Assembly: GCA_964567595.1 (NCBI GenBank)
Contig: CAZMNF010000001.1
Location: 48,531-112,530, forward strand
Direction: 5' to 3'
From: an uncultured Thermotogae bacterium
GTDB lineage: Bacteria > Bipolaricaulota > Bipolaricaulia > RBG-16-55-9
Length of the DNA: 64,000 bases
Within the stretch, counting starts at the first letter, position 1. Each line of letters opens with the position of its first letter. The notes under the pieces are model-generated. The model was not told the origin of the DNA. It saw only the letters and a program-made list of their open reading frames with translations, and did no database searches. The translations under genes were made by a program, and so were the position numbers. Below, one piece after another: positions 6,119-64,000 of the stretch.

Positions 6119-6120
6119 TC

Positions 6121-45497: not shown

Positions 45498-47387
45498 GTG
45501 GGCACCAGCCAACTGGAAGCGACGATTCGGCAGACGCTGGCGTCGGCGGAATCGGAGCTGCACACCGAACAATTGGCCCAAGAGCTTGGGATCGCTCGCC
45601 ACACGGCCTCCAAGTACTTGGCCATTCTGCACACGAAGGGCGAGGTTCGATGTCGGAAAGTCGGCAACGCCAAGCTCTGGAGCATCGCTCCAACGGCCGA
45701 GCCGACAACAGGGGGTGACCGGGCCTGTGCGGAGCGCGTGTTCCTGGAGCTGCATCCGCCGCTGGACGACGCGGCGGCGGTCGTGGAAGCCGAGCGGTGT
45801 CTGGACTGCGGCGGCCCCTTGTCGCCGGCGCCCTGCGTGACGGCCTGCCCCACGTCGATCGACGTGCCGCGCTTCATCCAAGAGATTCGCGAGGGGCGGC
45901 CGCTCGACGCGGCCCGCACGATCTTCGACGCCAACGTCCTGGGCGGCAGTTGTGCCCGCGTCTGCCCCGTTGAGGAGCTCTGCGAGGGCGCCTGCGTTCT
46001 GGAAACGGAAGGCCGACGGGCCGTCGACATCAGGCGCCTGCAGCGCTATGCGACCGACCGTGCTCTGGCGGCCGAGGGCCCATCGTTTGCGACCGATGCG
46101 ACCGATGCGACCGAGGCGACTGCCTCGAGAACCGACGCAGCCAGCGTGGCCGTCGTCGGGGCCGGCCCGGCCGGGCTCGGCTGCGCGGCAGAATTGGCCC
46201 GACTTGGGCATCGGGTCGTCGTGTACGAGCGACGGTCCTGCCCGGGCGGCCTGATCACCAGCGCCATCGCCCCCTACAAACAGCTCGTCGATCCGCTGCC
46301 CGACGAGGTGGCTCGCCTCGAGTCGCTCGGCGTGGCGTTCCGCTTCGGCGTGACCCTGGGCCAGGACGTCACGCTGGACGCGCTGGAGCGTCGTTACGAT
46401 GCCGTCTTCCTCGGCATCGGCCTCGGGCCGGACATCCCGGCCAACCTCCCCGGCGAGCACCTCAACGGCGTCTGGGACTCGCTCGAGTTCATCGAGCACG
46501 TCAAGGAATCGCGGTTCGACGAGCTCGACCTCGACACGCCGCTTGCCGTGATCGGCGGCGGCAACACCGCCATCGACGTCGCCCGGGAGGCCAAGCGACT
46601 CGGGGTGTCGACCGTGACCGTGCTCTATCGGCGCACGGAAGACCAGATGCCGGCCTACGACCACGAGATCGAGGAGGCCAAGGCGGAGGGCGTGGACTTC
46701 CAGTTTTTGACCAATCCGACGCGATTTGTGGGCGACGACGGCCAGGTTCGAGGCGTCGAATGCGTCGAAATGACCCTGGGCGAGCCGGACGCATCGGGCC
46801 GCCCGCGACCGGAGCCCGTTGCGGATGCCGAGTACGTCGTCGAGGCCAACACGGTCGTCAAGGCGATCGGTCAGCGGCCGTGGACCGACCGGCTCGAGGC
46901 GTGGAACCTCGACCACGACCGCGGCTGGATCGAGACCCGGCGCCGCCGCACGAATCGTCCGACGGTCTACGCCGGCGGCGACTGCGTCAACGGCGGGGCA
47001 ACGGTCGTGGAGGCCGTACGGGACGGCCGCTCGGCGGCCCGTCGCATGCACGAAGCCATCGTCGGGCAGGCCTTGCCCAAGCCGATCACGACGGTCCGGG
47101 GCGAGACCGAACAGGCCGACGAGCGGACGTACTATTCGCAGGGGGCGGGGCACTACGTCGGGACGGAGCCGCGGCTCTGCAAGGGCTGTGAGCTCTGCGT
47201 CAACAGCTGCCCCAAGGGCGTGCTCGACCTCGACGCCAAGGGCAAGATCGTCATGAGCGACCCGAGCGAGTGCGTCTTCTGCGGGGTTTGTGAAGCCCGT
47301 TGTCCCGACTTCGCCATCTGGGTCGTCAAGGACGACGAGGGCGAGCGGGCGCCCGAGCGAGAGCCCGCGGAGGTGACGCTGACATGA
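45498..47387 (+). CDS. three-domain fusion: wHTH + GltD/PreT-like FAD/NAD(P)H oxidoreductase (2x[4Fe-4S]) + KorD-like 2x[4Fe-4S] ferredoxin
   Basis: aa 1-65: 'LHTEQLAQELGIARHTASKYLAILHTKGEVRCRKVGNAKLW' (wHTH). Then 'RCLDCGG...CVTACP' and 'GSCARVCPVEELCEGAC'. Two dinucleotide folds: 'VAVVGAGPAGLGCA' and 'LAVIGGGNTAIDVA'. C-terminus: 'CKGCELCVNSCP...CVFCGVCEARCP'. GTG start. Stop overlaps the korA ATG. Confidence 0.8.
   Translation: MGTSQLEATIRQTLASAESELHTEQLAQELGIARHTASKYLAILHTKGEVRCRKVGNAKLWSIAPTAEPTTGGDRACAERVFLELHPPLDDAAAVVEAERCLDCGGPLSPAPCVTACPTSIDVPRFIQEIREGRPLDAARTIFDANVLGGSCARVCPVEELCEGACVLETEGRRAVDIRRLQRYATDRALAAEGPSFATDATDATEATASRTDAASVAVVGAGPAGLGCAAELARLGHRVVVYERRSCPGGLITSAIAPYKQLVDPLPDEVARLESLGVAFRFGVTLGQDVTLDALERRYDAVFLGIGLGPDIPANLPGEHLNGVWDSLEFIEHVKESRFDELDLDTPLAVIGGGNTAIDVAREAKRLGVSTVTVLYRRTEDQMPAYDHEIEEAKAEGVDFQFLTNPTRFVGDDGQVRGVECVEMTLGEPDASGRPRPEPVADAEYVVEANTVVKAIGQRPWTDRLEAWNLDHDRGWIETRRRRTNRPTVYAGGDCVNGGATVVEAVRDGRSAARRMHEAIVGQALPKPITTVRGETEQADERTYYSQGAGHYVGTEPRLCKGCELCVNSCPKGVLDLDAKGKIVMSDPSECVFCGVCEARCPDFAIWVVKDDEGERAPEREPAEVTLT
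46089..46115 (+). repeat. 9-nt tandem repeat (GCGACCGAT x3) in an interdomain linker
   Basis: Encodes ATD-ATD-ATE. Confidence 0.85.
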
Positions 47388-48550
47388 GCCGGGCCACTCC
47401 CACGGCGACGCCGACGCAGCAGTTGGTGCAGGGCAACGAGGCGTGCGCCTACGGCGCGCTCTACGCGGGATGTGATTTTTACGCCGGGTATCCGATCACG
47501 CCCAGCTCCGAGGTCATGGAGATCATGAGCCGCGAGCAGCCCAAGCGCGGCGGGGCGTTCATCCAGATGGAGGATGAGATCGCCTCGATCTCCGCCATCA
47601 TTGGCGCGGCTTGGACGGGCGCGAAGGCCATGACGGCCACGAGCGGGCCAGGGTTTTCGCTGATGCAGGAGGGGCTCGGCTACGCCTGCATGACGGAGAC
47701 GCCGTGCGTCATCGTCGATTCCCAGCGCGGCGGCCCGTCGACGGGGCAGCCGACCAAGCCCGCCCAAGGCGACGTCATGCAAGCAATCTGGGGCACGCAC
47801 GGCGATCATCCCATTGTCGTGCTGACGGCCTCCGACGTGCGCGCGGCGTTCGAGATGACCGTGCAGGCGTTCAACATTTCCGAACGCTTCCGCGTCCCCG
47901 TCATTCTGCTGCTCGACGAAGTCCTCTCGCACATGCGCGAGAACATGGCCTGGCCCGAGCCGGGCGAAATCGAGGTCGTCGACCGGGCACGGCCCGCGTC
48001 GTTGGAGGGCTTCGAGGCCTTCGGGGGCGCGGAGTTCGTGCCGTTCGGCGAGGGACTGCGCTTCAACGTGACCGGCCTGTCGCACGACGGCCAGGGCCAG
48101 TACATCAAAGGCAGCGAGGCGGAAGCGATGTTCCGGCGGACCATGGACCGCGTCTACGGCAACGTCGAGCAGATCGCCCTCTACGACAACGTCGAGCTTG
48201 ACGACGCCGAGTACGTCATCGTCAGCTACGGCATCACGTCGCGAGCGGCCATGAGCGCCGTGGAGCGCTTCCGCGCCGACGGCCACCGGGTCGGCCTGCT
48301 CAACCTCAAGACGCTCTGGCCCTTCCCCGACTTCCTCTTCGAACGATTCTGCGACTGCGTGAAGGGGATCCTGGTTCCCGAACTGAACCTCGGGCAAGTC
48401 GTCCGCGAGGTGAGCCGCGCGGCGGGCGAGCGGCTCGGGCGCGAGGTCGCCGTCGAGTCGCTCTCGCGGGTCGACGGCCAACTGATCACGCCCCAGCAGA
48501 TCATCGATCGGATCCGGAGTTGGATCGACGAAGGAGGGCGGCATGAGTGA
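47384..48550 (+). CDS. korA: 2-oxoacid:ferredoxin oxidoreductase, alpha subunit
   Basis: 'GNEACAYGALYAGCDFYAGYPITPSSE' and 'SGPGFSLMQEGLGYA'. Confidence 0.9.
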   Translation: MSRATPTATPTQQLVQGNEACAYGALYAGCDFYAGYPITPSSEVMEIMSREQPKRGGAFIQMEDEIASISAIIGAAWTGAKAMTATSGPGFSLMQEGLGYACMTETPCVIVDSQRGGPSTGQPTKPAQGDVMQAIWGTHGDHPIVVLTASDVRAAFEMTVQAFNISERFRVPVILLLDEVLSHMRENMAWPEPGEIEVVDRARPASLEGFEAFGGAEFVPFGEGLRFNVTGLSHDGQGQYIKGSEAEAMFRRTMDRVYGNVEQIALYDNVELDDAEYVIVSYGITSRAAMSAVERFRADGHRVGLLNLKTLWPFPDFLFERFCDCVKGILVPELNLGQVVREVSRAAGERLGREVAVESLSRVDGQLITPQQIIDRIRSWIDEGGRHE

Positions 48551-49367
48551 GCACGGCGGCCAGTACCTGCGGGCGGACTACCTGCCGACGGTCTGGTGCC
48601 CCGGCTGCGGCAACGGCGTCATCGTCAAGTCGATGGCCGAGGCGATGGCCGACGTCGGCTGGGATCCGGACCAGACGGTCGTGGTGGGCGGCATCGGGTG
48701 TTCGGGGCGGACGCCGTTCTATCTGGATGCCAACACGATGCACACCACCCACGGCCGCGCACTGGCGTTCGCCACGGGCGTCAAGATGGCCCGGCCTCGG
48801 TTCAACGTCGTCGTCACCATGGGCGACGGCGACGCCAGCGGCATCGGCGGCAACCACTTCATCCATGCCTGCCGGCGCAACATCGACCTGACCGCGATCG
48901 TGTTCGACAACTCCATCTACGGCCAAACGGGCGGTCAGCTCGCCCCGACGACGCCCACGGGCAAAGTGAGCACGACGTCGCCGCAGGGCAGCGTCGATCC
49001 GTCGTTCGATCTGTGCCAGTTGGCCGAGGGCTCGGGCGCGAGCTTCGTGGCGCGGACCTCGACATTCGATTTCCAGCAGCTGCAGGATCTCTTGGTGCGC
49101 GGCTTCCAACACCGCGGCTTTGCCCTCGTCGAGGTCATGACGACCTGTCCGACGTACTACGGCCGCATGAACGGGGTCCGCGATCCCTACGCCATGCTGC
49201 GCGAGATCGAACAAATAACGCAGGACAGCAACGGGCACGCCAACGGACATGGAGACGGAGAGCCCCTTGACCTGAATGCGCGACCGACAGGGGTCTTCGT
49301 CAATGAGTCCCGCGACGAGTACACCGACATCTATCGACGGCGCTGTGAGGAGGCGAGGTCGGGATGA
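48543..49367 (+). CDS. korB: 2-oxoacid:ferredoxin oxidoreductase, beta (TPP) subunit
   Basis: 'WCPGCGNG' and 'GDGDASGIGGNHFIHACRRN'. Confidence 0.9.
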   Translation: MSEHGGQYLRADYLPTVWCPGCGNGVIVKSMAEAMADVGWDPDQTVVVGGIGCSGRTPFYLDANTMHTTHGRALAFATGVKMARPRFNVVVTMGDGDASGIGGNHFIHACRRNIDLTAIVFDNSIYGQTGGQLAPTTPTGKVSTTSPQGSVDPSFDLCQLAEGSGASFVARTSTFDFQQLQDLLVRGFQHRGFALVEVMTTCPTYYGRMNGVRDPYAMLREIEQITQDSNGHANGHGDGEPLDLNARPTGVFVNESRDEYTDIYRRRCEEARSG

Positions 49368-49933
49368 CGACACGACGGGCTCCCGATGGGCGTGTGGAGC
49401 TGCGCCTCAGTGGCGCGGGCGGCCAAGGGCTCATCACCGCCGGCGTGATCCTTTCCGAGGCGGCCGTGCTGGACAGACGCCAGGTCGTGCAGACCCAGAG
49501 CTACGGGCCGGAGGCGCGCCTCGGCGCCAGCCGAGCCGAGGTCATCGTCGCCCGCGAGACGATCGCCTACCCGCAGGTCGTTGAGCCCGACGTCATCCTC
49601 TGTCTGTCCCAAGATTCCTTCGACAAATACATCGGCGACGCCAACGAGGAGACGCTCGTCGTCGTCGACGCCAGCAACGTCGAGGTCAACGGCTCGACAA
49701 ACGGGGCCCAAGTCTACGCATTTCCCATCACGGAGACGGCGATCGAGGTCGGTCACAAGGTCGTGGCCAACGTTGTCGCGCTCGGCGCGCTCAACGCGTT
49801 GGCCGAGGTGGTCTCTTCCGAGAGCCTGACGGAGGCCGTGCTGCGCCGCGTGCCCGATAAACACCGCGAGATGAACGAAAGGGCCATCGAAGCGGGCCAC
49901 GAGCTGGTCGCGGCGTCCGCGGCGACGTCCTAG
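49364..49933 (+). CDS. korC: 2-oxoacid:ferredoxin oxidoreductase, gamma subunit
   Basis: 'LRLSGAGGQGLITAGVIL' and 'SYGPEARLGASRAEV'. Confidence 0.85.
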   Translation: MTTRRAPDGRVELRLSGAGGQGLITAGVILSEAAVLDRRQVVQTQSYGPEARLGASRAEVIVARETIAYPQVVEPDVILCLSQDSFDKYIGDANEETLVVVDASNVEVNGSTNGAQVYAFPITETAIEVGHKVVANVVALGALNALAEVVSSESLTEAVLRRVPDKHREMNERAIEAGHELVAASAATS

Positions 49934-49950
49934 GCAGCGATCCTGATGGC

Positions 49951-50046
49951 TATCTCAAGATATCGATATCTCATACGAAAAATTCCAGAACTGCCGCAAA
50001 ATCCAGAACGTGAGCTGATTACGGGCATATCGGCCGATGATAAAGA
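49951..50046 (+). promoter_or_regulatory. AT-rich control region upstream of the GltD-like/nuo operon
   Basis: Perfect 14-bp palindrome AGATATCGATATCT at 49958-49971. TATCTCA occurs twice (49951 and 49967). Direct repeats AAAAT(T)CCAGAAC at 49979-49991 and 49998-50009. Possible extended -10 TGaTAAAGA at 50038-50046. Confidence 0.5.
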
Positions 50047-50100
50047 TCATTGGCGCCACGCGACCACGTTTGCAAACTCACCTTAGCGGAGGGGTGGACG

Positions 50101-51675
50101 ATGCCGAAGCTGACCGATTCTGAACTGAAAGAACGGCTACAGGGCCACTACGAGTACGAGCAGCTGCCCGAGCGCAAGGTCCCGCCGGAAGAGCGCATGA
50201 CGTTCGAGGAGCTGGCGCTCGGCTACGACGAGGACAGCGTTCGCGCGGAGGCCGATCGCTGCATGCAGTGCCAGGATCCGCCGTGCGTCAAGGCCTGCCC
50301 CGCGCACCTCAACGTGCCGGGCTACGTCCAAAAGATCGCCGAGGGCGACGACAAGGGCGCGCTCCAGACCATCATGGACACGTACCCCTTGCCGGCCAGC
50401 TGTGGCCGCGTCTGCTTCCATCCCTGCACCGACGTCTGCCTGCGCGGGGTCCAGGGCGAGCCGCTCAACATCCCGCGGCTGCGGCGCTTCGTCGCGGACA
50501 AAGTGAGCCAGTACGACTTGGACTACGACATCCCCGAGTCGACCGGCAAGCGGATCGCCTGCATCGGCTCCGGCCCGGCCAGTCTGTCGTGTGCTTATCA
50601 CCTGCGCCGGCGGGGTCACGACGTCGTCGTCTTTGAGAGCAATGAGAAGCCGGGCGGCGCGCTCAACACCATTCCCGACTACCGGCTGCCCAACGACGTG
50701 CTCCAGGAGGAAGTCGACGTGCTGCGCTGGCTCGGCGTTGACGTCCGCACGGACGAGGGCGTCGGCGGCGACGGCTGCATCGACGCGCTTCTGAAGGCCT
50801 ATGACGCCATCTTTATCGGCGCGGGTGCGGTCAGCTCCTGGAAGCCCGGCATGCCCGGCATCGACCTGCCCGGCAGCATCACGGGGCTCGACTTCCTGCG
50901 CGCGGCCGACCGCGGCGAGATGCCGGAATTCAACCGCGTGGCCGTCATCGGCGGCGGCGACGTCGCCATGGACGCGCTGCGGACGTCGCTGCGCCGCGCT
51001 GAGACCGTGCATTGGGTCTATCGCCGCAGCGCCGAACAGATGCCGAGCACCGAGGACGAGGTCGTCGAGCTCGGCGAGGAGGTCGTGCTCCACGACCTGG
51101 ACGAGATCGAGGACGCCTTCGTCGATCCTTACAAGGAGAACGTCCTCCATGAAGCGCGCGAGAAGCTGCTCCACTTGACGTTCGAGAAGCGCCAGGAGAT
51201 CGAGGCCGAGATCGACAAGGGCATCAAGTCGCGCGCGGTTGAGGCCATCAACCGCGAAGCCGATGAGCACGATGGCAAGCTGGTTGTCCAGCTGCTGACC
51301 AACCCGACGCAGCTCTTGGGCGAGGACCGCGTCGAGGGCATGGAGCTGCAGCGCATGGAACTCGGCCCGCCCGATGACAGCGGCCGCCGCAAGCCCCAGC
51401 CCGTGGAGGGCTCGGAGTTCGTCGTCGACGTCGACACCGTCATCTGGTGCATCGGCCAGGACGTCGACTCCAGCTGGCTCCCCGAGGACAGCGGGATCGA
51501 GCTGAAGAAGTGGGGCGAGGTGATCGCCGACGAGACCCAGCGGACGAGCCGCGAGCGCGTCTTCGCCGGGGGCGACGCCGTGCGCGGCCCCTCCAGCATG
51601 ATCGACGCGCTGGCCGACGGCATCCGCGCGGCCGACGAAATTCATGACGAGATCACCGCGGAGGTGCCCGCATGA
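50101..51675 (+). CDS. GltD/NfnB-like FAD + 2x[4Fe-4S] NAD(P)H oxidoreductase, translationally coupled to nuoA
   Basis: '[14 protein letters not shown]', '[14 protein letters not shown]', '[14 protein letters not shown]', '[13 protein letters not shown]' and 'GGDAVRG'. ATG 50101 lies 6 nt after GGAGGGGTGG. The stop shares ATGA with the nuoA start. Confidence 0.85.
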
Positions 51676-52037
51676 ACGCCTTGGGAGGCTATCTGCCGCT
51701 TTTGATGATCAGCGTCGTCGGGATCGGCATCGTCGCCGTCGTGCTCTGGCTCGGCCACAAGCTGACCCCGCCCGACGACAGCGGCGAGAAGGGCGAGACC
51801 TACGAGTGCGGCGAGAAGCCGATCGGCTCGACCCAGAAGCCGATCGACATCAAGTACTACATGTACGTGCTGCTCTTCCTCGTCATCGACGTGGAGATCG
51901 CGTTCCTGATTCCCTGGGCGATCGAGTTCCGCTCGTTCGGGCTGCTCGCCTTTATCGAGATCATGATCTTCGTCGGCATTCTGCTCCTGGCTTGGGCCTA
52001 CGCCTGGAAGGAGGGGTTCCTGAAGTGGCTCCGCTAA
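51672..52037 (+). CDS. nuoA: NADH-quinone oxidoreductase-type subunit A
   Basis: 'YECGEKP...[23 protein letters not shown]'. Confidence 0.9.
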
Positions 52038-52651
52038 ACGACGACGTGCGACCGAACGGCCAAAACGGCCCGAACGGCCAGAAGGGCCAAGCCGAGGGGC
52101 TCGACCGCGGCATCGACGCGCTGGCCCAAGAGAAGGGCGGCTTGAGCGGGTTTGCTCTCGCCAAGGCGGACGAGTTCCTCAATTGGGCCCGCAGCAACTC
52201 CATGTGGCCGCTCACGTTCGGGCTCGCCTGCTGCGCGCTGGAGATGATGTCCTGTCAGGACTCGCGCTTCGACATGGCGCGGTTCGGCTCGGAGATTTTT
52301 CGGCCGTCGCCGCGACAGGCTGATTTGATGATCGTGGCCGGGACGGTCACGAAGCGCATGGCCCCACGCGTGAAAACCATTTACGACCAGATGGCCGATC
52401 CGAAGTACGTCATCGCCATGGGCGCCTGCACCATCAACGGCGGGCCCTATCAGACGACCTACAGCGTCGTCAAGGGGGTCGACTTGATCGTCCCCGTCGA
52501 CGTCCACTGCCCCGGGTGCCCGCCGACGCCGAACGCGCTGTTGCACGCGCTCATGACGCTGCAGGAGAAGATCCGCGACCGCGAGGGGGGCTACCGCGTG
52601 CCCCCGCTCGTTCGAGAGGAGCTGCAGCCGACATGGCAGAGCCCGTCATGA
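52025..52651 (+). CDS. nuoB: complex I subunit B (N2 cluster)
   Basis: '[15 protein letters not shown]', '[10 protein letters not shown]' and 'CPGCPPTP'. GTG start 8 nt after GGAGGGG. Confidence 0.9.
52052..52087 (+). repeat. 18-nt tandem duplication in the NuoB N-terminal tail
   Basis: CCGAACGGCCAAAACGGC / CCGAACGGCCAGAAGGGC, encoding [12 protein letters not shown]. Confidence 0.85.
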
Positions 52652-53160
52652 GCGAGCGATCCTCGATCCTCGACGGCCTGAAACCCAAGGTCGCCGACGC
52701 GATTCAGGAAGAGACGATGTTGTTGGACAAGCCGATGTGGATCGTCGACGGCAAACGCCTGCGTGAGGTCGGCGAGGCGGCCAAGTCGAGCGGCTTCGTC
52801 CATCTGGCCTGCATCACCGCGATCGACAAGCTCGACGAGGAGGCCATCGACGTCGTCTACAACCTCTATGCCTACGAGACGCTCGAGCATCTGGCGCTGA
52901 AGGTCCGGACGCCGCGCGACGACGCGCGCGTGCCGTCGGTCGTGCCCGTCTGGAAGGCGGCGGACTTCCTGGAGCGCGAGCAGTACGACCTCGTCGGGGT
53001 CGTCTTCGAGGGGCACCCGAACTTGCGGCGCATCCTGCTGCCCGAGCCCTGGCAAGGGCATCCCCTTCGAAAGGACTACGACATGGCCACCGAGCAATAC
53101 ATCAGCAAGGGCCCCGAGGGCGGCGACGTCGTCTCCACGGACCCCGAAAGCGGGTGGTAG
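52633..53160 (+). CDS. nuoC: complex I subunit C
   Basis: 'ITAIDKL...VVYNLY', '[14 protein letters not shown]' and 'HPLRKDY'. Start is ATG 52633 or ATG 52648. Confidence 0.85.
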
Positions 53161-54326
53161 CGATGAGCACGGAGATCGAGCGCTCCCCAGAGATTCAGCC
53201 CTACACGCTGGAGAAGACCGAGCAAGAGGACAAGCTCATCATGAACATGGGCCCGCACCACCCGGCCACGCACGGCGTGTTGCGGCTGGTCTTGACCTTG
53301 GACGGCGAGGTCGTCAAGCGGGCCCAGCCCGTCGTGGGGTATCTGCACCGCAGCTTCGAGAAGATGGCGGAGCTGAACCGCTATCCGCAGTTCATCGTGG
53401 AGTGCAACCGCGCCGACTACGTGGCGGCCTCCCACTATGAGGCCGCTTATGTGCGCGCCGTCGAGGAGCTGGCCGGGATCGAGCCGACCCCGCGCGGGCA
53501 GTACATGCGCGTGATCGTCAACGAGCTCGATCGCATCCAGAGCCATCTGCTGTGGCTCGGCACCTTCGGCCTCGACATCGGCGCGCTCAACGCCTTCTTC
53601 TACGCGTTTCGTGAGCGCGAGTTCGTCCTGGAGCTCTTCCAGGAGCTGACCGGCGCGCGCATGCACTACAACTTCCTGCGCTTCGGCGGCGTCAAGGCCG
53701 ACTTCCCGGAGGGATTCGAGGCCAAGGTCCGCGAGGCCTGCGATATTGCCGAGCAGAAGGTCGACGAATACGAGGATTTCCTGTCGGGCAGCGACACGTT
53801 CCTCATGCGGACCCAGGGCGTCGGCGTGCTCACCCAGGAGGAAGCGCTCGAGTGGGGCATCACCGGCCCCAATCTCCGCGCGGTGGGCATCGATCACGAC
53901 CTGCGCCGCGACGAGCCCTACTTCGCCTACGGCGACCTTGAGGTCGACGTGCCCACGCGCACCAACGGCGACGCCTACGCCCGCTATGAAGTTCGGCTGG
54001 ATGAGATCCGGGCCTCGGTGAAGCTGGTCCGCCAGGCGCTCGATCGGATGCCGGACGGGCCCGTCGTGCCGCGCGGCCTGGAGAAGGGCTACCAACTGCT
54101 CGTCACGACCGAGGGCGAGCACTACACGCAGATTGAAGGCGCCCGCGGCCCGATCGGCGTCTTCCTCGTCGGCGACGGGACGACGTTCCCCTATCGGGTC
54201 AAGCTGCGCTCGCCGTGTTTCGTCAACCTGGCGATCCTGCCGGAGCTGTTCCGCGACGGGATCATCTCCGACTTGGTCGCGATCAACGGCAGCTTCGACG
54301 TGATCCTGCCGTGCGTCGACCGATGA
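53154..54326 (+). CDS. nuoD: complex I subunit D
   Basis: 'MNMGPHHPATHGVLRL', 'GYLHRSFEK' and 'RSPCFVNL'. Confidence 0.95.
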   Translation: MVAMSTEIERSPEIQPYTLEKTEQEDKLIMNMGPHHPATHGVLRLVLTLDGEVVKRAQPVVGYLHRSFEKMAELNRYPQFIVECNRADYVAASHYEAAYVRAVEELAGIEPTPRGQYMRVIVNELDRIQSHLLWLGTFGLDIGALNAFFYAFREREFVLELFQELTGARMHYNFLRFGGVKADFPEGFEAKVREACDIAEQKVDEYEDFLSGSDTFLMRTQGVGVLTQEEALEWGITGPNLRAVGIDHDLRRDEPYFAYGDLEVDVPTRTNGDAYARYEVRLDEIRASVKLVRQALDRMPDGPVVPRGLEKGYQLLVTTEGEHYTQIEGARGPIGVFLVGDGTTFPYRVKLRSPCFVNLAILPELFRDGIISDLVAINGSFDVILPCVDR

Positions 54327-54381
54327 GACCCCGAGAGGCGATGGCGATGCGACAGGGACTGAAAGGGACGGTGAACGACCG

Positions 54382-56107: not shown

Positions 56108-56108
56108 C

Positions 56109-56339
56109 ATGCGACGCGCGCTCGCCGGCCTCGCCGCCGGCCTGTTTGCGATCATCCTGGTGGTCCTGATTCTGGCGCCGGAGGCTTGGCAGAGTGCCCC
56201 TCTCGGCGCCGAAAACTTTAAGGCGATCGGAGACGTCCTCTTTGGGCCCTATCTGCTGGCGTTCGAGATCGTGTCGGTGTTGCTCGTGGCCGCCTTGGTC
56301 GGGGCGCTCTATCTCGCGTGGAAGGGGGCCTCATCGTGA
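56109..56339 (+). CDS. nuoJ: complex I subunit J, C-terminal half (J2)
   Basis: 76 aa, '[26 protein letters not shown]'. Its own ATG lies 1 nt after the J1 stop, in a different frame. Confidence 0.75.
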
Positions 56340-56638
56340 TGTCGATATCCGCCTATCTCGCGCTCAGCGCGCTGCTCTTTGCCATCGGCACATACGGGCT
56401 GTTGGTCTCCCGCAACGGCATCCGGATCCTGATCTGCGTGGAGCTGCTCCTGAACGCCGCCAACATCAACCTCGTGGCGTTCGCGGCGTTCCACGAGCAC
56501 GCGCTCGGCTACGTCTTCGCGCTGTTCTCCATTGCGCTGGCGGCAGCGGAAGCCGCCGTGGGATTGTCGATCTTCATCGCGCTGTTCCGGCTTCGAAAGA
56601 ACATCGACGTGAGCCTGCTTACGACCTTGAGGGGCTGA
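56339..56638 (+). CDS. nuoK: complex I subunit K
   Basis: '[18 protein letters not shown]' and '[12 protein letters not shown]'. Confidence 0.9.
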
Positions 56639-56642
56639 TGAG

Positions 56643-58559
56643 ATGAGCTATCAACTTGCCTGGCTGATTCCGGCGATTCCCCTGGCGGCAGCGTTCGTCA
56701 TCGCCGTGTTGGGGCCGCGTCTGCGCGACGGCGGCGGCTGGCTGGCCGTGGTCGCGGGCGGCCTGTCCGTGGTCATCGCGTTGCCCTTGGGCTGGCAGGC
56801 GCTGCACAGTGAAGAAGCCTTCCATCAGACGTTCACCTGGTTCAGCGCCGGGGACTTGCAACTGAACGTCGGCATTTACCTCGACCACTTGGCGGCCCTG
56901 TTGATGATGGTCGTCAGCTTCGTCAGCTTCCTCATCCTCGTCTACTCCATCAGCTACATGAGCCACGAGGGCAAGCGCCGCCCGCGCTACTTCGCCGAGG
57001 TCTCGCTGTTCATCGGCGCCATGCTCGGCGTCGTGCTGGCCGACAACTATCTCGAAGTCTACGTCTTCTGGGAGCTGGTGGGGCTCTGTTCGTATCTGCT
57101 CATCGGGTTCTGGTACGAGCGTCCGTCGGCGTCGGCCGCCGCCATCAAGGCGTTTCTCGTCACGCGCGTGGGCGATCTCTTCTTCCTGCTCGGGTTGGTC
57201 GTGCTGCTCGTGCAGTTCCAGACGCTGCAGTTCGACGAGCTGTTCACCATGACCGTCCCGCCGGATCAGATGTGGGCCATTGGTCTCGCTGGCTTGTTTA
57301 TCTTCGGCGGCGCGGTTGGAAAATCCGCACAGTTCCCGCTGCACATCTGGCTGCCCGACGCCATGGAGGGTCCCACGACCGTCTCGGCGCTCATCCACGC
57401 GGCCGCGATGGTCAAAGCCGGCGTCTATCTCGTCGCGCGCACCATGCCCTTGCTCGTCATGATGAGCGGCAACCTCGTCTTCATCGCGCTGATCGGCGGC
57501 TTCACCGCCATCATGGCGGCGGTATTGGCGACGATGAAGAACGACATCAAGCGCGTGCTCGCCTACTCCACGATCTCGCAGCTGGGCTACATGTTCCTGG
57601 GCCTCGGCGTCGGCGGGCTCGCGTACGCCGTTCACGACCACGAGGCCACGGGCTACACCGCCGGGCTGTTCCACCTCATGAACCACGCGTTCTTTAAGGC
57701 CCTGCTCTTCCTCTGCGCCGGGTCGGTGATGCACGCCATGAGCGAGCGGACGGATATGCGACGAATGGGGCAGCTCTGGCCGAAGCTCAAGATCACGGGG
57801 ACCGCCATGCTCGTGGGGGCGCTCTCCAACGCCGGTATCCCGCCGACGAGCGGCTTCTGGAGCAAGGACGAAATTCTGGCGTCGGCGCTGACCACCGCCA
57901 ACGGGAACTTCCTGGTGACCCTGGCCTGGGTCTTCGGCTTCATCACTGTCTTCCTCACGTCCTTCTATCTCTTCCGACTCTGGTTCATGACGTTCGCGGG
58001 GACCAAGCGTTGGGACCCCGACGTCCACCCGCACGAGTCGCCCCCGCTCATGACGTGGCCGCTCATCATTCTGGCGATCTTCGCCTTCGGCTCCGGCTTT
58101 CTCGTCTTCGCCGGATTTGGGAGCTTCATCGCCTTCGGCGAGCCGCACGCGGTCGCGCCGGGCGCGTATCTGGCGCAAACCTTCGGCAATCCGTGGGCAC
58201 TGCTGTCGATCGCCTTGGCGCTGGGCGGGATCGGCCTCGCCTATCTGATCTATCACCGCGGCATGGACGTCTCGCGCTACCGCACCGCCGCGGGCGCGGC
58301 GTGCTATCGCGTGCTCGATCGGAACTACTACCTCGACGACGTCGCCAACGGGCTGGCCGGCAAGGTCACGGTCGGCTTGGCCAAGGGCGTCGACTTTGTC
58401 GACCGACGCGGCGTGGACGGGATCATCAACGGGGTCGCCCTGGGCAGCGCGCGGCTCGGCACGCGCTTACGGCATACGGCCACCGGCTTGGTCAGCGACT
58501 ACGCGGGCTGGGTGCTCGCCGGGGTCATCGTCCTCATGGTCGTCTTCATCTGGAGGTAA
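56643..58559 (+). CDS. nuoL: complex I subunit L
   Basis: 638 aa antiporter-like protein, '[32 protein letters not shown]'-type motif. Confidence 0.95.
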   Translation: [638 protein letters not shown]

Positions 58560-58565
58560 CGTCCA

Positions 58566-60032
58566 ATGGGTCTCGTGACATGGATGCTGCTAACCTCGCT
58601 CTTCGGCGCCCTCATCCTCTGGGTCGTCCGGGCCGACGCCGTCAAGCCGATCGCGCTGGCGCTTGCCGTCGTCGTCTTTGTGCTGGCGACGCTGGCGGCG
58701 CTGTCGTTCCACCCGGGCGCGCCCGGCTATCAGTTCGTCGACGAGGCCTCCTGGGTGCCGCAGATCGGCGTCCAGTACAAGGTCGGCCTCGACGGCATCA
58801 GCCTGCCCATGGTCTGGCTGACGGCGCTGCTGACGCTTTTGGTCGTCGTGTTCTCCTGGAACATCGCCGACCGGGCGTACTACGCGCTCTTCTTCCTGTT
58901 GCAACTGGCCGTGATCGGCGTTTTCACCGCGCTTGACCTCTTTCTGTTCTACGTCTTCTGGGAGCTGGTGCTGGTGCCGATGTACTTCATCATTCGCGGC
59001 TGGGGCGGCGAACGCAAGGAATATGCCGCGATCAAGTTCTTCGTCTACACGTTCACCGCCAGCCTGGTGATGCTCGTCGGCATCATGGCGCTCTATTTCT
59101 CAACGGGCGCGCAGACGTTTGACATCACCCAATTGGCTGGAATGGCACCGGACCTGGCGCGCAACGCTCAGATCTGGATCTTTGCGGCACTGTTCATCGG
59201 ATTTCTCGTCAAGATGCCGCAGATCCCCGTCCACACCTGGCTTCCCGACGCCCACGTCCAGGCGCCCACGGGCGGCTCGGTCATCCTGGCCGGCGTCTTG
59301 CTGAAGCTGGGCTCCTACGGGCTGATCCGGGTGTCGCTGCCGCTGCTGCCCGAGGGCGCGCAGGCCTTCGTGCCGGTGATGGTCGTCTTGGGCGTACTCA
59401 GCATCCTCTACGCCGCGCTCGTCTGTCTGGCGCAGCGCGATCTCAAACGCCTGGTCGCCTATTCGAGCATCAGCCACATGGGGATGGTGCTGCTCGGCAC
59501 GGCCGTGTTGGGCCAGGCCGGGATCACCGCCGCCGTCTACATGATGTTCGCGCACGGGCTCATCAGCGGGCTCTTGTTCATGATCGTCGGCGCGATCCAC
59601 CACGGCGCCGGGACGCGCGAGATCCCGAACCTGGGCGGCCTGGCGCTCACGGCACCCAAGGCCGGGATGATCATCATGGCCGGCGCGCTGGCGTCGTTGG
59701 GCCTGCCGGGCATGGTCCAGTTCGTCGCCGAGTTCACGGTGTTCGTGTCGGCGTTCGCGGCCTTCGGCTGGTGGATCCTGCTGCCCGTGCTCACGGTGGT
59801 GCTGACGGCCGGGTATTATCTCTGGGCGCTCAAACGGAGCATGTTCGGGCAACTGGCGCCGATGGCCGAGGCGGCCCACGACGTCAAGTCGTACGAGTTC
59901 TGGCCCATGATGGCGCTGGTGGCGCTGATCATCGTCTTCGGCGTCGTCCCGGCCGTCTGGATGGGACCGATCGACGCCGCCGTCGCGCAGAACGTGCTTG
60001 AGCCGATCTTGACGCTAGGGGTGAGACCGTGA
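58566..60032 (+). CDS. nuoM: complex I subunit M
   Basis: 'KMPQIPVHTWLPDAHVQAPTGGSVILAGVLLKLG'. Confidence 0.95.
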   Translation: MGLVTWMLLTSLFGALILWVVRADAVKPIALALAVVVFVLATLAALSFHPGAPGYQFVDEASWVPQIGVQYKVGLDGISLPMVWLTALLTLLVVVFSWNIADRAYYALFFLLQLAVIGVFTALDLFLFYVFWELVLVPMYFIIRGWGGERKEYAAIKFFVYTFTASLVMLVGIMALYFSTGAQTFDITQLAGMAPDLARNAQIWIFAALFIGFLVKMPQIPVHTWLPDAHVQAPTGGSVILAGVLLKLGSYGLIRVSLPLLPEGAQAFVPVMVVLGVLSILYAALVCLAQRDLKRLVAYSSISHMGMVLLGTAVLGQAGITAAVYMMFAHGLISGLLFMIVGAIHHGAGTREIPNLGGLALTAPKAGMIIMAGALASLGLPGMVQFVAEFTVFVSAFAAFGWWILLPVLTVVLTAGYYLWALKRSMFGQLAPMAEAAHDVKSYEFWPMMALVALIIVFGVVPAVWMGPIDAAVAQNVLEPILTLGVRP

Positions 60033-61459
60033 CCGCCTACGACCTTCTCGGGATCCTGCCCGAGCTGATCCTCGTCGTCACCGCGTTTGCCATTCTGCTG
60101 ACGCGCCGCGTGGAGCAGGAGTTGGCGCTCTTCGGCTTGGTGTTGGCGCTCGCCAGCCTGACCGTGATCCCGCAGGAGACGTTCTTCTTCGGCACGATCG
60201 CCATCGACGCCTTCGCGCTGGCATTCATGGCGCTCTTCCTCGGCATGGCTGTCTTAGTGGGGCTCGGCTCCACCGAGCGCGTCCACGCCGATCGGGCCAA
60301 GGAGTACTACGCGCTCCTGCTCTTCGCCACCGTCGGGATGCTCGGCGTGGCGGGCTCCACGGATCTGATCACGCTCTTCGTCAGCTTCGAGCTGTCCAGT
60401 CTGTCCACCTACGCATTGGTCGCGTATACGAAACAGAGAGAAGCTTCGGTCGAGGCGGCCACAAAATTCTTCGTCATCGGGGCGTTCAGCAGCGCGCTGG
60501 CGCTCTACGGCATTTCACTATTGTACGGCGTCTCGGGCACGACGACGATCAGTGAGCTGGCCACCAACGTCGAGGCATCCGGCTTGACATCCGTCTTTCA
60601 GATCGGCGTCGTGCTGGTCCTGGCCGGCTTCGGCTTCAAGATCACGGTGATCCCGTTCCACCTCTGGGCGCCGGACACCTACGAGGGCGCGCCGACGCCC
60701 ATCACCGCCCTCTTAGCAACGGGCTCCAAAAAAATGGGCTTCGCCGTGCTGTTGAAGATCTTCTTCCTGGGACTCATCGCCATGAAGATGCAGTGGGCGC
60801 CGATCTTCGGCGTGCTGGCCGTGCTGACGATGACGATGGGCAACCTGATGGCGCTCGCGCAGTCGAGCGTCAAGCGGATGCTGGCCTATTCCTCGATCGC
60901 CCAGGCCGGCTACATCCTGATTGCGTTTGCCGTGGCGACGCCGTATGGCCTGGCAGGCGGGCTGTTCCACATCGTCACGCACTCGGTCATGACCGTGGGA
61001 GCGTTCTTGGTGGTTGCGGCGGTGAGTGGGGTCGAGCGCGACGACTTCCCCTTGTTTGCTGGCCTGTCGCAGCGCCAGCCGTTCTTGGCCGTGTCGATGG
61101 CCGTGTTCATGATCTCCTTGGCCGGCATTCCGCCGCTGGTCGGGTTCCAGAGCAAGTTCGTGCTCTTCTCCAGCGCGGTCCAGACCGGCATCGAGGGGCC
61201 GTCCTGGCTGGTCTGGCTGGCGATCTTCGGCGTGCTCAACTCGGCGCTGTCCCTCGGCTACTACGCCCGCGTCCTGAAGGCCATGTACTTCACCGAGGTC
61301 GCCCCACAGTTCGCCAGCAATCCGCACCCGAAGCGCTTGACGGTTCCCGTGCCTCTGTTGGCCTCCATCGCCGTGGCGCTGGCGTTCGTGATCGGGTTCG
61401 GGCTCTTCCCGGCGCCGATCCTCGACGCGCTGTTGAGCGTGGCGGGGACGTTGCTGTAG
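60029..61459 (+). CDS. nuoN: complex I subunit N
   Basis: 'FKITVIPFHLWAPDTYEGAPTPITALL'. GTG start overlaps the nuoM stop. Confidence 0.95.
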   Translation: MTAYDLLGILPELILVVTAFAILLTRRVEQELALFGLVLALASLTVIPQETFFFGTIAIDAFALAFMALFLGMAVLVGLGSTERVHADRAKEYYALLLFATVGMLGVAGSTDLITLFVSFELSSLSTYALVAYTKQREASVEAATKFFVIGAFSSALALYGISLLYGVSGTTTISELATNVEASGLTSVFQIGVVLVLAGFGFKITVIPFHLWAPDTYEGAPTPITALLATGSKKMGFAVLLKIFFLGLIAMKMQWAPIFGVLAVLTMTMGNLMALAQSSVKRMLAYSSIAQAGYILIAFAVATPYGLAGGLFHIVTHSVMTVGAFLVVAAVSGVERDDFPLFAGLSQRQPFLAVSMAVFMISLAGIPPLVGFQSKFVLFSSAVQTGIEGPSWLVWLAIFGVLNSALSLGYYARVLKAMYFTEVAPQFASNPHPKRLTVPVPLLASIAVALAFVIGFGLFPAPILDALLSVAGTLL

Positions 61460-61768: not shown

Positions 61769-62986
61769 ATGATCGTTGGAGTTCCCCGCGAAACCTACCC
61801 CGGCGAGCGACGCGTCGCGCTGATCCCCTCGTTCGCCAAACGCCTCATCCAGTCCGAGCACGAGGTCTGGGTCGAACCCAGCGCCGGCGACGAGGCCGGA
61901 CACCCGGACGATGCCTTCGAAAACCAAGGGGCCCAAATCAAAAGCCGAGACGAGATTTTCCAAGGCGCCGACATGATCGCGCAGGTGCGCGGGCTTGGCG
62001 CCAATCGCGACGCCGGTCAACAGGACCTGGAACGCTTGCGTGAGGGGCAAGGGCTGGTCGCGATGATGGACCCGCTCAGCGAGCCCGAGGCGGCCCGCGA
62101 GCTGTCCGAGCAGGGCGTCACGAGCTACGCCATGGAGCTGATGCCGCGCATCTCCCGCGCGCAGAGCATGGACGCGCTGTCGTCACAGGCCAACATCGGC
62201 GGGTACAAGTCGGTGCTGTTGGCGGCCGAGGCCCTTCCCAAGATCTTCCCCATGATGATGACGGCGGCGGGGACGATCACGCCCGCTCGCGTCTTCATCG
62301 TCGGCGCGGGCGTGGCCGGACTCCAGGCGATCGCAACTGCCAGACGCTTGGGGGCCGTCGTGAAGTCCTACGACATCCGCCCGGAGGTGAAGGAACAGGT
62401 CGAAAGCCTCGGCGCCAAATTCGTCGAGCTGGAGCTGGAAACCGAGGATGCCTCGGGCGAGGGCGGCTACGCGCAGGCGATGGATGAGGAGTTCTATCGC
62501 AAACAGCGAGAAATGATGAATGAGGTCGTCGCCGAGAGCGACGTCGTCATCACGACGGCCGCGGTCCCCGGCAAGCAGGCGCCCATTCTCGTGACCGAGG
62601 AGATGGTCCAGGGGATGGCGCCCGGCTCGGTTCTGGTCGATTTGGCCGCCGAACGGGGCGGCAACTGTGAGCTGACCGAACCGGGCCAAAACGTCGATGC
62701 TCACGGTGTTACCGTCATTGGCCCCGAAAACCTGCCCTCAAGCGTCCCGAAGCACGCCAGCCAGATGTACGCGTCCAACGTCGTCAACTTCCTCGAACAC
62801 CTGCTGGATCATGGGGGCTTGGATGATCCGGACACCGAGGATCAGATCGTGCACGACACGATGCTGACCCGAGACGGGCTCCTCGTTCACGAGACGGTCC
62901 GCGAGCTGCTCGGGGAAGCGCCGGCCGAGACGGCCTCAGCATCGGCCGACGACGCACCCACCGATACGGAAGGGGAGAGCTCCTAA
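61769..62986 (+). CDS. pntAA: NAD(P) transhydrogenase alpha subunit, part 1 (dI)
   Basis: 'MIVGVPRETYPGERRVALIP', 'RISRAQSMDALSSQANIGGYK' and 'VFIVGAGVAGLQAIATA'. Start at the internal ATG after GAAGGGAG. Confidence 0.9.
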   Translation: MIVGVPRETYPGERRVALIPSFAKRLIQSEHEVWVEPSAGDEAGHPDDAFENQGAQIKSRDEIFQGADMIAQVRGLGANRDAGQQDLERLREGQGLVAMMDPLSEPEAARELSEQGVTSYAMELMPRISRAQSMDALSSQANIGGYKSVLLAAEALPKIFPMMMTAAGTITPARVFIVGAGVAGLQAIATARRLGAVVKSYDIRPEVKEQVESLGAKFVELELETEDASGEGGYAQAMDEEFYRKQREMMNEVVAESDVVITTAAVPGKQAPILVTEEMVQGMAPGSVLVDLAAERGGNCELTEPGQNVDAHGVTVIGPENLPSSVPKHASQMYASNVVNFLEHLLDHGGLDDPDTEDQIVHDTMLTRDGLLVHETVRELLGEAPAETASASADDAPTDTEGESS

Positions 62987-63000: not shown

Positions 63001-63279
63001 ATGGAATTGATCACGGCACTGACCATCTTTGTCCTGGCCATTTTCGTCGGGTTCGAGGTCATCACGAAGGTCCCGCCGATCCTGCATACGCCCTTGATGT
63101 CGGGGGCCAACGCCATCTCGGGCATTACGGTGATCGGCGCCGTCGTGGCGGCCGGCGCGGAGTCCGAGATGCTCACCACCGTCTTGGGCTTTTTGGCCGT
63201 CGTCTTCGCCACGACCAACGTGGTCGGCGGGTTCTCCGTCACCCACCGGATGCTGCAGATGTTCCACGGAAAGGACTGA
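63001..63279 (+). CDS. pntAB: NAD(P) transhydrogenase alpha subunit, part 2 (membrane)
   Basis: 92 aa, 'HTPLMSGANAISGITVIGA'. Confidence 0.9.
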   Translation: MELITALTIFVLAIFVGFEVITKVPPILHTPLMSGANAISGITVIGAVVAAGAESEMLTTVLGFLAVVFATTNVVGGFSVTHRMLQMFHGKD

Positions 63280-63286
63280 CCTCGCG

Positions 63287-64000
63287 ATGACGCTCTCGCC
63301 CGCAATCGTCAACCTCGTCTATCTCCTCGCGGCTGCGCTGTTCATCTTCGGGTTGAAAAACCTCGGTCACCCCCGAACAGCCGTGCGCGGCAACATCATG
63401 GGCGCGCTCGGCATGCTCTTGGCCGTGGTCGTCACGCTCGTCAGCCAGGACATCGTCGCTTGGTGGGTCGTCCTGGCGGGCCTCGCCGTCGGGGGAGCGC
63501 TCGGCGGAACGCTCGCTTTCACCGTTGAGATGACCGCGATGCCCCAACTGGTGGCGGTTTTCAATGGCTTCGGCGGCGGCGCGTCGGCACTGGTGGCGGG
63601 AGCTGAACTGGTGCAGCGCGTGGCCGAGTCCTCAGGCGCCCCGTTCGGGCTCGTCTTCCTGGTCGCCGCGGCGGCATCGGGACTTATCGGGGCGCTGACC
63701 TTCTGGGGCAGCCTGATCGCCTTCGGCAAACTCCAGGGCGTCGTCAATGAGAACGCCGTGCGGTTCCCGGGCCAACACGCCATCAACGCCGTGCTGTTCC
63801 TCGGGGCGCTGGCGCTCGCGATCGGCGTCATTGTCTCGCCCACGGTTCCGTGGTTCTATCTTGGACTCGTCGCCGTGGCATCGGCCCTCGGCGTCCTATT
63901 GGTTATTCCCATCGGCGGCGCGGACATGCCGGTGGTCGTGTCGCTCTTGAACTCCTATTCCGGCCTGGCGGCCGCCGCGACCGGCTTTGTGCTGTTCAAC
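63287..64000 (+). CDS. pntB: NAD(P) transhydrogenase beta subunit (N-terminal part; runs off the window)
   Basis: Own translation from ATG 63287: 'MTLSPAIVNLVYLLAAALFIFGLKNLGHPRTAVRGNIMGALGM...'. The frame stays open to the window end. Confidence 0.85.
   Translation, partial: MTLSPAIVNLVYLLAAALFIFGLKNLGHPRTAVRGNIMGALGMLLAVVVTLVSQDIVAWWVVLAGLAVGGALGGTLAFTVEMTAMPQLVAVFNGFGGGASALVAGAELVQRVAESSGAPFGLVFLVAAAASGLIGALTFWGSLIAFGKLQGVVNENAVRFPGQHAINAVLFLGALALAIGVIVSPTVPWFYLGLVAVASALGVLLVIPIGGADMPVVVSLLNSYSGLAAAATGFVLFN

Follow-up and report, generated by a model that had tools for sequence, protein, structure and literature searches.

A candidate NfnB/GltD-type NAD(P)H module for the NuoEFG-less, 11-subunit complex I of Bipolaricaulota

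In this study we analysed a 64,000-nt stretch of DNA (the window; positions 48,531 to 112,530 of contig CAZMNF010000001.1, assembly GCA_964567595.1) from an uncultured bacterium placed within the Bipolaricaulota, which carries an operon for an 11-subunit respiratory complex I (Nuo11) without the NADH-oxidising subunits NuoE, NuoF and NuoG. The first gene of this operon encodes an NfnB/GltD-type iron-sulfur flavoprotein of 524 residues, referred to here as GltD-ins, and we consider it somewhat probable, from comparative sequence evidence, that this protein is bound to the complex as a dedicated NAD(P)H module, electronically connected to NuoI. An electron donor of this kind has long been sought: for the bacterial 11-subunit complex I, it was stated that “No designated partner protein ... 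could be found” (PMC3144371, 2011), and according to recent work the designated donor is still unknown (PMC11238625). In publications on Bipolaricaulota, the enzyme is named a (nearly complete) NADH dehydrogenase (PMC9586279).

From position 45498 to the window end, open reading frame listing and Pfam scans delineated 20 genes in a single run on the forward strand, one more than the 19 counted in an earlier note on this DNA, whose gene order and coordinates matched for each gene that it named. Within this run, the GltD-ins gene (50101..51675; Pfam Fer4_20 and Pyr_redox_2) shares the 4 nt of its stop codon region with the ATG of nuoA (51672..52037; Oxidored_q4), which is followed by nuoB (52025..52651; Oxidored_q6; start provisional, GTG at 52025 or 52046), nuoC (52633..53160; Complex1_30kDa), nuoD (53163..54326; Complex1_49kDa; 429 bits with the NCBIfam NuoD model, cut-off 360), nuoH (54382..55365; NADHdh), nuoI (55365..55862; Fer4), two genes for a split NuoJ, nuoK (56339..56638; Oxidored_q2), nuoL (56643..58559; Proton_antipo_N and Proton_antipo_M), nuoM (58566..60032; Proton_antipo_M) and nuoN (60029..61459; Proton_antipo_M). 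The N-terminal half of NuoJ (nuoJ1, 55859..56107) matches Oxidored_q3 positions 2-66 and the C-terminal half (nuoJ2, 56109..56339) positions 77-146; the same split occurs in the related loci L054, L055 and L057-L059, and NuoJ is split in most members of the clade described below. All eleven subunits were identified by Pfam, the operon is of the quinone type, and the proposal of a complex I operon lacking genes for the NADH-oxidising module is borne out for the window: the interval between the nuoD stop at 54326 and the nuoH start at 54382 leaves no room for nuoE, nuoF or nuoG, and none of the three was found elsewhere within the 64-kb window. Most junctions are overlapping or shorter than 10 nt, as claimed before, and are accompanied by GGAGG-like ribosome-binding sites. 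The operon is preceded by the previously described AT-rich spacer of 167 nt (49934..50100; 50% G+C as compared to ~65% in the window), which is probably its promoter region. A consensus promoter and terminator scan detected no promoter-like sites, the sigma-70 consensus being missing from the spacer too, and terminator-like matches only within genes.

The core subunits retain the residues of a quinone-reducing enzyme. The best PDB match of NuoD, the quinone-site subunit, is cyanobacterial NdhH (2e-108), followed by Thermus thermophilus Nqo4, both over the full length, and the protein is distant from MBS, MBH and FHL. It contains the motifs GPHHPATHG and NRADY and lacks the N-terminal NiFe CxxC; we take its HPATHG and RADY to correspond to H38 and Y87 of T. 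thermophilus Nqo4, the quinone-ligating His and Tyr. At its very end (window 54300-54326; ...DVILPCVDR), NuoD has one Cys where the hydrogenase motif DPCxxC has its second one, a vestige of NiFe-hydrogenase ancestry. In an alignment, NuoB displayed the ligands of cluster N2 (CC...C...C, in GLACCALEM, GACTINGGP and PGCPP); its low-complexity N-terminal extension (52025-52140) is not shared by six more distant members (L002, L054, L055, L057-L059). NuoI, whose nearest PDB relative is NdhI, carries the ligands of clusters N6a and N6b, CTGCLMCEQACP and CTYCGWCEEVCP, each a CxxCxxCxxxCP motif, and is the presumed entry point for electrons. A clade-specific feature was found in NuoC, whose core homology to PDB entries ends at residue ~150, the last ~25 residues forming an extra tail that ends in GW (53083-53157; ...EQ[FY][IV]xKGxxGxDVVxxxxxxGW). 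This tail is shared by 7 clade members, is missing or dissimilar in the outgroup loci L060 and L061, and may represent a docking peptide for the flavoprotein.

GltD-ins itself belongs to a well delimited group. Among 5.8 billion proteins searched, its homologs fall into ~33 clusters. These proteins are 512-556 aa long, share 47% identity or more and score 514 bits or higher; after them the scores drop to 358 bits or less, and the matches are ordinary NfnB/GltD-like proteins of ~460 aa. In a simple neighbour-joining tree these homologs are monophyletic, and the members that bear names come from Bipolaricaulia/Bipolaricaulota, one of them labelled Fraserbacteria; as judged from these matches, GltD-ins is a Bipolaricaulota-restricted NfnB/GltD subfamily. 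Every member possesses an insertion of ~60 residues in the NAD(P)H-binding domain (residues ~330-389; window 51088..51267), which was seen neither in any PDB relative nor in the generic NfnB-like proteins compared, and common to all is an N-terminal extension, LSDxELxxRxxGLYxYEQ. Furthermore, the second cluster motif reads CxxxCxHPCxxxC (residues 100-113; window 50398-50439), whereas generic NfnB-like proteins have CxxxCPQExxCxxxC; a two-residue deletion removed the PQE at the cluster site, which may have retuned the cluster potential. Insertion, extension and altered motif are all missing from P0116, a generic NfnB-like protein of Bipolaricaulota. As in other Fer4_20 flavoproteins, there are two four-cysteine motifs and sites for FAD and NAD(P)H. 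C54, C57, C62, C66, C105, C109 and C113 are invariant and C101 is near-invariant, and little or no variation was seen in the FAD motif GSGPA (GxGxxA) and the NAD(P)H motif GGGDVAMD...YRR.

The closest structures are the NfnABC complexes of T. sibiricus and C. saccharolyticus, P. furiosus NfnI-L, T. maritima NfnB and StnC, and the fold superimposes on 5jca_L and 4ylf_B with template-modelling scores of about 0.75-0.84. An AlphaFold2 model built from 31 sequences (pLDDT 77.7) predicted the insertion as a two-helix hairpin (helices 333-354 and 361-389; block-mean pLDDT about 50-77). Two familiar identities were tried and excluded. GltD-ins is not GltD proper, as there is no GltB large-subunit gene in the 64-kb window and no NCBIfam GltD/gltA model scored above its cut-off (for instance, TIGR01316 with 324 vs 472 bits); nor did the protein match any curated NCBIfam equivalog at its threshold. 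Nor is it part of an NfnAB transhydrogenase, since no gene for NfnA, the PyrK-like FAD/[2Fe-2S] partner, was found adjacent to it, elsewhere in the operon or in the remaining window. As the operon encodes neither an NfnA/PyrK-like protein nor GltB, the Fe-S chain of GltD-ins would need a different acceptor.

Our principal result comes from comparison of related loci and concerns the conservation of gene order. The earlier note had proposed counting how often a gltD-like gene directly precedes nuoA in related genomes, and this adjacency was indeed conserved. Relatives were sampled by a metagenome scan with an alignment and by exact-protein look-ups; scanning a genome collection with a single protein returned one match, 93% identical and fully syntenic, in the metagenome-assembled genome (MAG) DAL-Ass, ‘Candidatus Bipolaricaulia bacterium’. 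GltD-ins lies directly 5' of nuoA in 14 loci (the window, L001, L002, L006, L007, L008, L010, L011, L054, L055, L057, L058, L059 and L062), whose NuoD proteins are 61-90% identical to that of the window and which, with L055/L057 and L010/L011 being close kin, represent about 9-10 independent lineages. Gene calls place the junctions at -25 to +4 nt (window, L002, L054, L055, L057, L058, L059, L062), and match coordinates, the only data for L001, L010 and L011, indicate a gap of about zero. The NuoD proteins concerned form a clade of ~32 clusters at 61% identity or more, as compared to ~33 for GltD-ins, and are separated by a gap from proteins at 51% or less. Sampling from the NuoD side yielded four new operons (L057, L058, L059, L062), all with a GltD-like gene of 523-535 aa directly before nuoA (at +4, -4, -4 and +4 nt, respectively), three of which were confirmed by sequence as members of the subfamily, while neither of the two nearest outgroup Nuo11 clusters (L060 and L061; NuoD ~50% identical) had GltD-ins. 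The outer flanks vary from locus to locus, including methylmalonyl-CoA mutase and an aminotransferase, a 2-hydroxyacid dehydrogenase, cytochrome c maturation and multihaem cytochromes, or kor genes, so that the block from GltD-ins to nuoN is the conserved unit.

The neighbour-joining tree divides GltD-ins into three subclades. Four operons (L002, L010, L011, L059) contain two tandem paralogs, one of which always belongs to clade B or its neighbours, and others have a single copy from any one subclade. In L059, the GltD-ins/nuo operon is located between ResB/CcsA-type cytochrome c maturation genes and several multihaem cytochromes (539-4728 and 18389-20547), surroundings suggestive of an island devoted to respiration. 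Upstream of the redox operons in the window (44087-45348), a universal stress protein gene is paired with genes of one or more CRP/FNR-family regulators (FixK/FnrL-like matches below cut-off), and the same pairing is present near the GltD-ins/nuo operon of L062 (3544-5474); these CRP/FNR-family proteins may be oxygen or redox regulators.

The conserved adjacency also bears on a more conventional interpretation, by which the operon would encode an ordinary NADH dehydrogenase complemented by a NuoEFG encoded elsewhere, and GltD-ins would be co-transcribed with nuo yet work as a separate enzyme, for example as an NADPH-dependent reductase of sulfur, oxygen or some other acceptor. Our search for nuoEFG covered the 64-kb window, separate nuoEFG operons are known, such as in a Chloroflexi genome cited in a passage of PMC5736913, and GltD-like modules serve very many enzymes, with partner lengths of ~430-1630 aa. 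Nevertheless, every NuoD-clade member sampled has kept the adjacency amid changing surroundings, the subfamily was not found beyond this clade, and neither GltD-ins nor the rest of the operon contains a catalytic partner domain that would act on a different substrate. We thus regard this interpretation as distinctly unlikely.

Instead, we favour a bound module, in which the genes from 50101 to 61459 would specify a 12-gene-type, quinone-reducing and proton-pumping NuoABCDHIJ1J2KLMN with GltD-ins as the functional replacement of NuoEFG. NAD(P)H would pass hydride to the FAD of GltD-ins, most likely as NADPH, because the YRR motif matches that of NADPH-using NfnB/GltD proteins. From the FAD, single electrons would travel via the two [4Fe-4S] clusters of GltD-ins to N6a/N6b in NuoI and N2 in NuoB before reaching (mena)quinone at the NuoD/NuoB/NuoH site, and this transfer would power proton translocation by NuoH/A/J/K/L/M/N; the reverse direction would also be possible. 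Docking might involve the helical hairpin and the N-terminal extension of GltD-ins together with the clade-specific NuoC tail. The idea of the GltD-like protein as a surrogate N-module had been raised before, and it is favoured because the gltD-like/nuoA adjacency is conserved. Our data directly document the gene content and motifs, the adjacency, which in many loci comes with translational coupling, and the confinement of the subfamily to the clade with this type of NuoD; physical binding, the use of NADPH and not NADH, the direction of electron flow and the docking elements are what we infer beyond that.

Several points weigh against a bound module. In L006-L008, the match coordinates leave a gap of ~130-260 nt to nuoA, so co-transcription is not guaranteed in these loci. 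Second, L003, L056 and probably L009 contain an insertion-bearing clade-B copy remote from nuo genes; its nesting among nuo-adjacent relatives suggests that this stand-alone copy results from secondary relocation. Third, the modelled hairpin, of modest confidence, could serve oligomerisation only, the specificity for NADPH is read from a motif shared with NADPH enzymes, and nuoEFG, looked for in these 64 kb, may lie elsewhere in the genome. Finally, the nearest structural relatives of NuoD and NuoI are ferredoxin-fed, and the window encodes a free dicluster ferredoxin of 125 aa (10039-10416, reverse strand, 40 kb from the operon), by which the organism is predicted to have a soluble ferredoxin.

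Some of these observations would fit an alternative in which GltD-ins is soluble and only co-expressed with a ferredoxin-dependent, NDH-1-like Nuo11. As an NAD(P)H:ferredoxin (or flavodoxin) oxidoreductase, it would equilibrate NADPH and the ferredoxin pool, the part that ferredoxin-NADP+ reductase plays for NDH-1. Its case is made by the closeness of NuoD and NuoI to NdhH and NdhI of the ferredoxin-fed cyanobacterial enzyme, by the known stand-alone copies (L003, L056), by the free ferredoxin of the window and by the precedent of Nfn, where the [4Fe-4S] clusters of NfnB reduce ferredoxin. However, electron transfer from NADPH to ferredoxin is uphill without bifurcation, for which a second, high-potential partner is not encoded, and a ferredoxin gene travels with the operon in none of the 14 loci. 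An overlap of 4 nt with nuoA and a strict association with a single NuoD clade fit a subunit better than a diffusible partner, and fusions of GltD domains to NuoC and to NuoI-like proteins favour direct wiring. On these grounds, a soluble reductase appears unlikely to us.

These fusions come from other branches of the complex I family. Locus L004 (4161-7917) contains nuoB, a gene for a NuoC::GltD fusion (P0120), a NuoD-like gene and a NuoI-like gene, with genes for a NuoH-like protein and an antiporter subunit on the opposite strand; its NuoD-like protein bears neither the NiFe nor the quinone signature, and the cluster is Mbx/Ehr-like. The GltD domain of this fusion lacks the ~60-residue insertion. 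A common trend towards NuoC::GltD fusion was considered and dropped, as there was only one further full-length protein (P0261) among 1.84 billion representatives, which leaves it as a supporting anecdote. In addition, the NCBIfam model NF010590 (PRK13984, 611 positions), annotated as ‘putative oxidoreductase’, apparently describes NuoI-like::GltD fusions, since NuoI matches its positions 19-138 and GltD-ins its positions 158-482. In mbx-like operons of Thermotoga and proteobacteria, a gltD-related flavoprotein takes the place of NuoI (Degli Esposti, PMC4758237). As far as can be told from these sequences, independent fusions place GltD modules at the NuoC/NuoI face of complex I-family enzymes. 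The window operon is not itself an Mbx-like/Ehr complex, which was excluded by its quinone-signature NuoD, its separate NuoI and the presence of NuoL, NuoM and NuoN. A further, widespread arrangement was noticed in L031 (2497-8206), where porGD, porA and porB are followed by genes for a NuoF C-terminal 4Fe-4S::GltD-like fusion and a NuoG-N-like protein with 2Fe-2S and 2x4Fe-4S sites, and similarly in L028-L037, L015, L016, L022, L023 and L049. Generic GltD-like genes, some fused to a NuoF C-terminal Fe-S domain, lie 3' of genes for porGDAB-type 2-oxoacid:ferredoxin oxidoreductases (OFORs) in many unrelated metagenome loci. L031-type loci suggest a class of OFOR wired to NAD(P)+ via GltD-type modules and N-module fragments.

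The mbx-like precedent raises the question of whether GltD-ins might mainly be an output, with Nuo11 running in reverse or driven by ferredoxin to reduce NADP+ for biosynthesis, as proposed for Mbx-like complexes. There, the gltD-related subunit was proposed as the site of NAD(P)+ reduction (PMC4758237); the chemistry is reversible, and the neighbouring pntAB shows that NADPH supply matters in this lineage. On the other hand, the NuoD of the window has the full quinone-site signature, unlike the NuoD-like proteins of Mbx/Ehr, and a respiratory heterotroph is indicated by aconitase, phosphoenolpyruvate carboxykinase and superoxide dismutase genes in the window together with the cytochrome genes of L059. 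Furthermore, nirK, nrfA and coxL have been reported from such MAGs (PMC13595746), and NADPH would already be supplied by NADP+-reducing dehydrogenases and the NADP-linked OFOR. We consider a predominantly biosynthetic output very unlikely, and return to the bound NAD(P)H module in the context of its neighbours.

The first gene of the run (45498..47387) encodes a fusion of 629 aa, consisting of a winged helix-turn-helix (wHTH), a second NfnB/GltD-like Fe-S flavoprotein (two [4Fe-4S] clusters, FAD, NAD(P)H site) and a 2x[4Fe-4S] ferredoxin of the OorD/KorD type (Pfam Fer4_20, Pyr_redox_2 and Fer4_7). The wHTH, reported before and unusual as a DNA-binding-type domain on a redox enzyme, was recovered as a Pfam HTH_11 match, albeit a weak one (E = 2e-4), and its L054 ortholog matched MarR_2, weakly as well. 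Residues 557-614 match the NCBIfam OorD model. In L054 the parts are separate: residues 22-520 are 54% identical to a wHTH-GltD gene product (1-1540) and residues 552-617 are 48% identical to a free ferredoxin preceding korA (5097-5378), the two genes being separated by an extra porGDAB-type OFOR cluster; the complete fusion recurs in L001. Downstream follow the alpha subunit gene korA/oorA of a 2-oxoacid:acceptor oxidoreductase (47384..48550; Pfam POR_N and PFOR_II; NCBIfam NF006412 with 511 bits, cut-off 411), korB/oorB for the thiamine pyrophosphate-binding beta subunit (48543..49367; TPP_enzyme_C; best NCBIfam model 2-oxoglutarate ferredoxin oxidoreductase beta, below cut-off) and korC/oorC for gamma (49364..49933; POR; NCBIfam gamma-subunit models, below cut-offs). 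The four-subunit OFOR set (OorDABC/KorABCD) is thus complete, with delta as the fused C-terminal domain. Since this delta domain shares one polypeptide with the second NfnB-like flavoprotein, which is of the NADP(H) type, electrons probably leave the OFOR as NADPH; that is, the linkage suggests direct NADP+ reduction and not the release of free reduced ferredoxin.

At the other end, nuoN is followed by a 309-nt spacer, of the length claimed, and by a three-gene proton-translocating transhydrogenase, comprising pntAA for the alpha dI domain (61769..62986; Pfam AlaDh_PNT_N/C; NCBIfam NF006942 with 410 bits, cut-off 383), pntAB for the alpha part with four transmembrane segments (63001..63279; PNTB_4TM) and pntB for beta (63287..64000; PNTB positions 2-230 of 456, cut by the window end). 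Such a PntAB would connect the two pyridine-nucleotide pools, NADH and NADPH. Among relatives, a kor cluster adjoins the operon only in close kin of the window and a single more distant genome (L001, L005 and L054), with unrelated upstream genes elsewhere, and pntAB lies 3' of nuoN only in the window and L001, not in L057, L058, L059 or L062. The inclusion of kor or pnt synteny in the conserved unit was therefore rejected, and by this comparison both are local additions in a genus-level lineage, outside the unit of GltD-ins and nuo. Two earlier suggestions lose ground accordingly: that Nuo11 is fed with reduced ferredoxin made next door by the OFOR is weakened by the poor conservation of kor, the lack of a free delta-ferredoxin and the NfnB-like fusion, and a role of PntAB in balancing the pyridine-nucleotide pools concerns a local, unconserved association. 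As a speculative extension, which we hold to be rather doubtful, respiration in this lineage might be centred on NADPH, and not on NADH or free ferredoxin, with the OFOR reducing NADP+, GltD-ins passing NADPH electrons to Nuo11 and PntAB delivering NADH electrons into the same pool. In a bolder form of this extension, the flavin of GltD-ins, whose module is of the NfnB type known from bifurcation, might divide the two electrons of NADPH between the quinone branch, via NuoI, and a low-potential acceptor, which would amount to a quinone-linked bifurcating complex I.

The remaining window is occupied by housekeeping and central-metabolism genes, among them those for aconitase, phosphoenolpyruvate carboxykinase and superoxide dismutase mentioned above. 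An archaeal source, initially suggested by acidic proteins, the wHTH and the split NuoJ, was rejected in view of the 93% match to the Bipolaricaulia MAG from the Danakil area and the Bipolaricaulota names borne by homologs. The proteins encoded are acidic, consistent with the halophilic Bipolaricaulota of the Danakil lakes (PMC13595746), and a cluster of genes for trehalose-6-phosphate synthase and phosphatase (OtsA/OtsB) and an MscS channel (5327-8784 and 6046-7287) fits the osmoadaptation of a hypersaline organism with such a proteome. Genes for tRNA-Ile(GAT) and tRNA-Ala(TGC) are adjacent at 32188-32352. Spacers of rRNA operons typically contain this pair; the 64 kb yielded no rRNA match.

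What is already known is that complex I has modular, lineage-specific inputs and that Mbx-like relatives contain gltD-related subunits. The earlier assertion that no GltD-type input module had been characterised for complex I stands for Nuo11, and not for these mbx-like relatives, whose gltD-related subunits have been described (PMC4758237); for a GltD/NfnB-type subunit on a quinone-type Nuo11 we found no description in the open-access literature apart from that mbx-like note. In one phylum-level clade, a designated candidate for this partner now turns out to be part of the operon, with recognisable putative docking features, by which the question of the donor of the widespread NuoEFG-less bacterial Nuo11, open for more than 10 years, becomes experimentally addressable. 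If our reading is true, GltD-ins would be a fourth kind of input module for complex I, after NuoEFG, FpoF and the ferredoxin site of NDH-1, and the NfnB/GltD module would have been recruited repeatedly to the complex I family. Likewise, the ‘nearly complete NADH dehydrogenase’ of Bipolaricaulota reconstructions (e.g. PMC9586279) would read differently.

Compared to known systems, the window operon has the same ABCDHIJKLMN core without NuoEFG as NDH-1, Fpo and Campylobacter Nuo, each of which relies on its own lineage-specific input: NdhS/V/O and ferredoxin in NDH-1, FpoF in Methanosarcina Fpo, and flavodoxin in Campylobacter. The fpoF gene is encoded together with fpo, which parallels the clade-specific GltD-ins beside the nuo core. 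Pfam scans revealed no homologs of NdhS, NdhO, NdhV or FpoF in the window operon; unlike in these three systems, the extra protein is an NfnB/GltD flavoprotein with FAD and two [4Fe-4S] clusters, whose substrate would be NAD(P)H. Mbx-like/Ehr complexes and the L004 fusion share with it a GltD/NfnB flavoprotein within or fused to the peripheral arm, whereas their NuoD-like proteins lack the quinone signature, their membrane part is of the Mrp type and their proposed reaction is NAD(P)+ reduction from ferredoxin, as opposed to the quinone-type Nuo11 of the window. The nearest relatives in sequence and fold are found in NfnAB, NfnABC and StnABC (PDB 4ylf, 5jca, 9n5u, 9bov, 8oh5), with FAD, two [4Fe-4S] clusters and YRR in common. 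The module connects to NuoE/F/G-like subunits in NfnABC and Stn, while the genomic partner of GltD-ins is the Q- and P-module of complex I; GltD-ins further differs by its altered Fe-S motif, its large insertion and the absence of an encoded NfnA or NuoE/F/G-like partner. As for the neighbouring OFOR, NADP-linked enzymes of this class are represented by the pyruvate:NADP+ oxidoreductase (PNO) of Euglena and Cryptosporidium and by KorABC of Azoarcus. Like PNO, the OFOR of the window has an NADP(H) flavoprotein fused at its electron exit; unlike PNO, this predicted flavoprotein is of the NfnB/GltD type with an N-terminal wHTH and is joined to the delta domain instead of a catalytic chain. Relative to the canonical 14-subunit Nuo/Nqo, finally, NuoE/F/G are absent from operon and window and NuoJ is split, whereas the Q- and P-modules are homologous, with the ligands of N2 and N6a/b and the quinone-site residues kept, and in place of the FMN of canonical NuoF the flavin of GltD-ins would be an FAD in a fold with two dinucleotide-binding domains.

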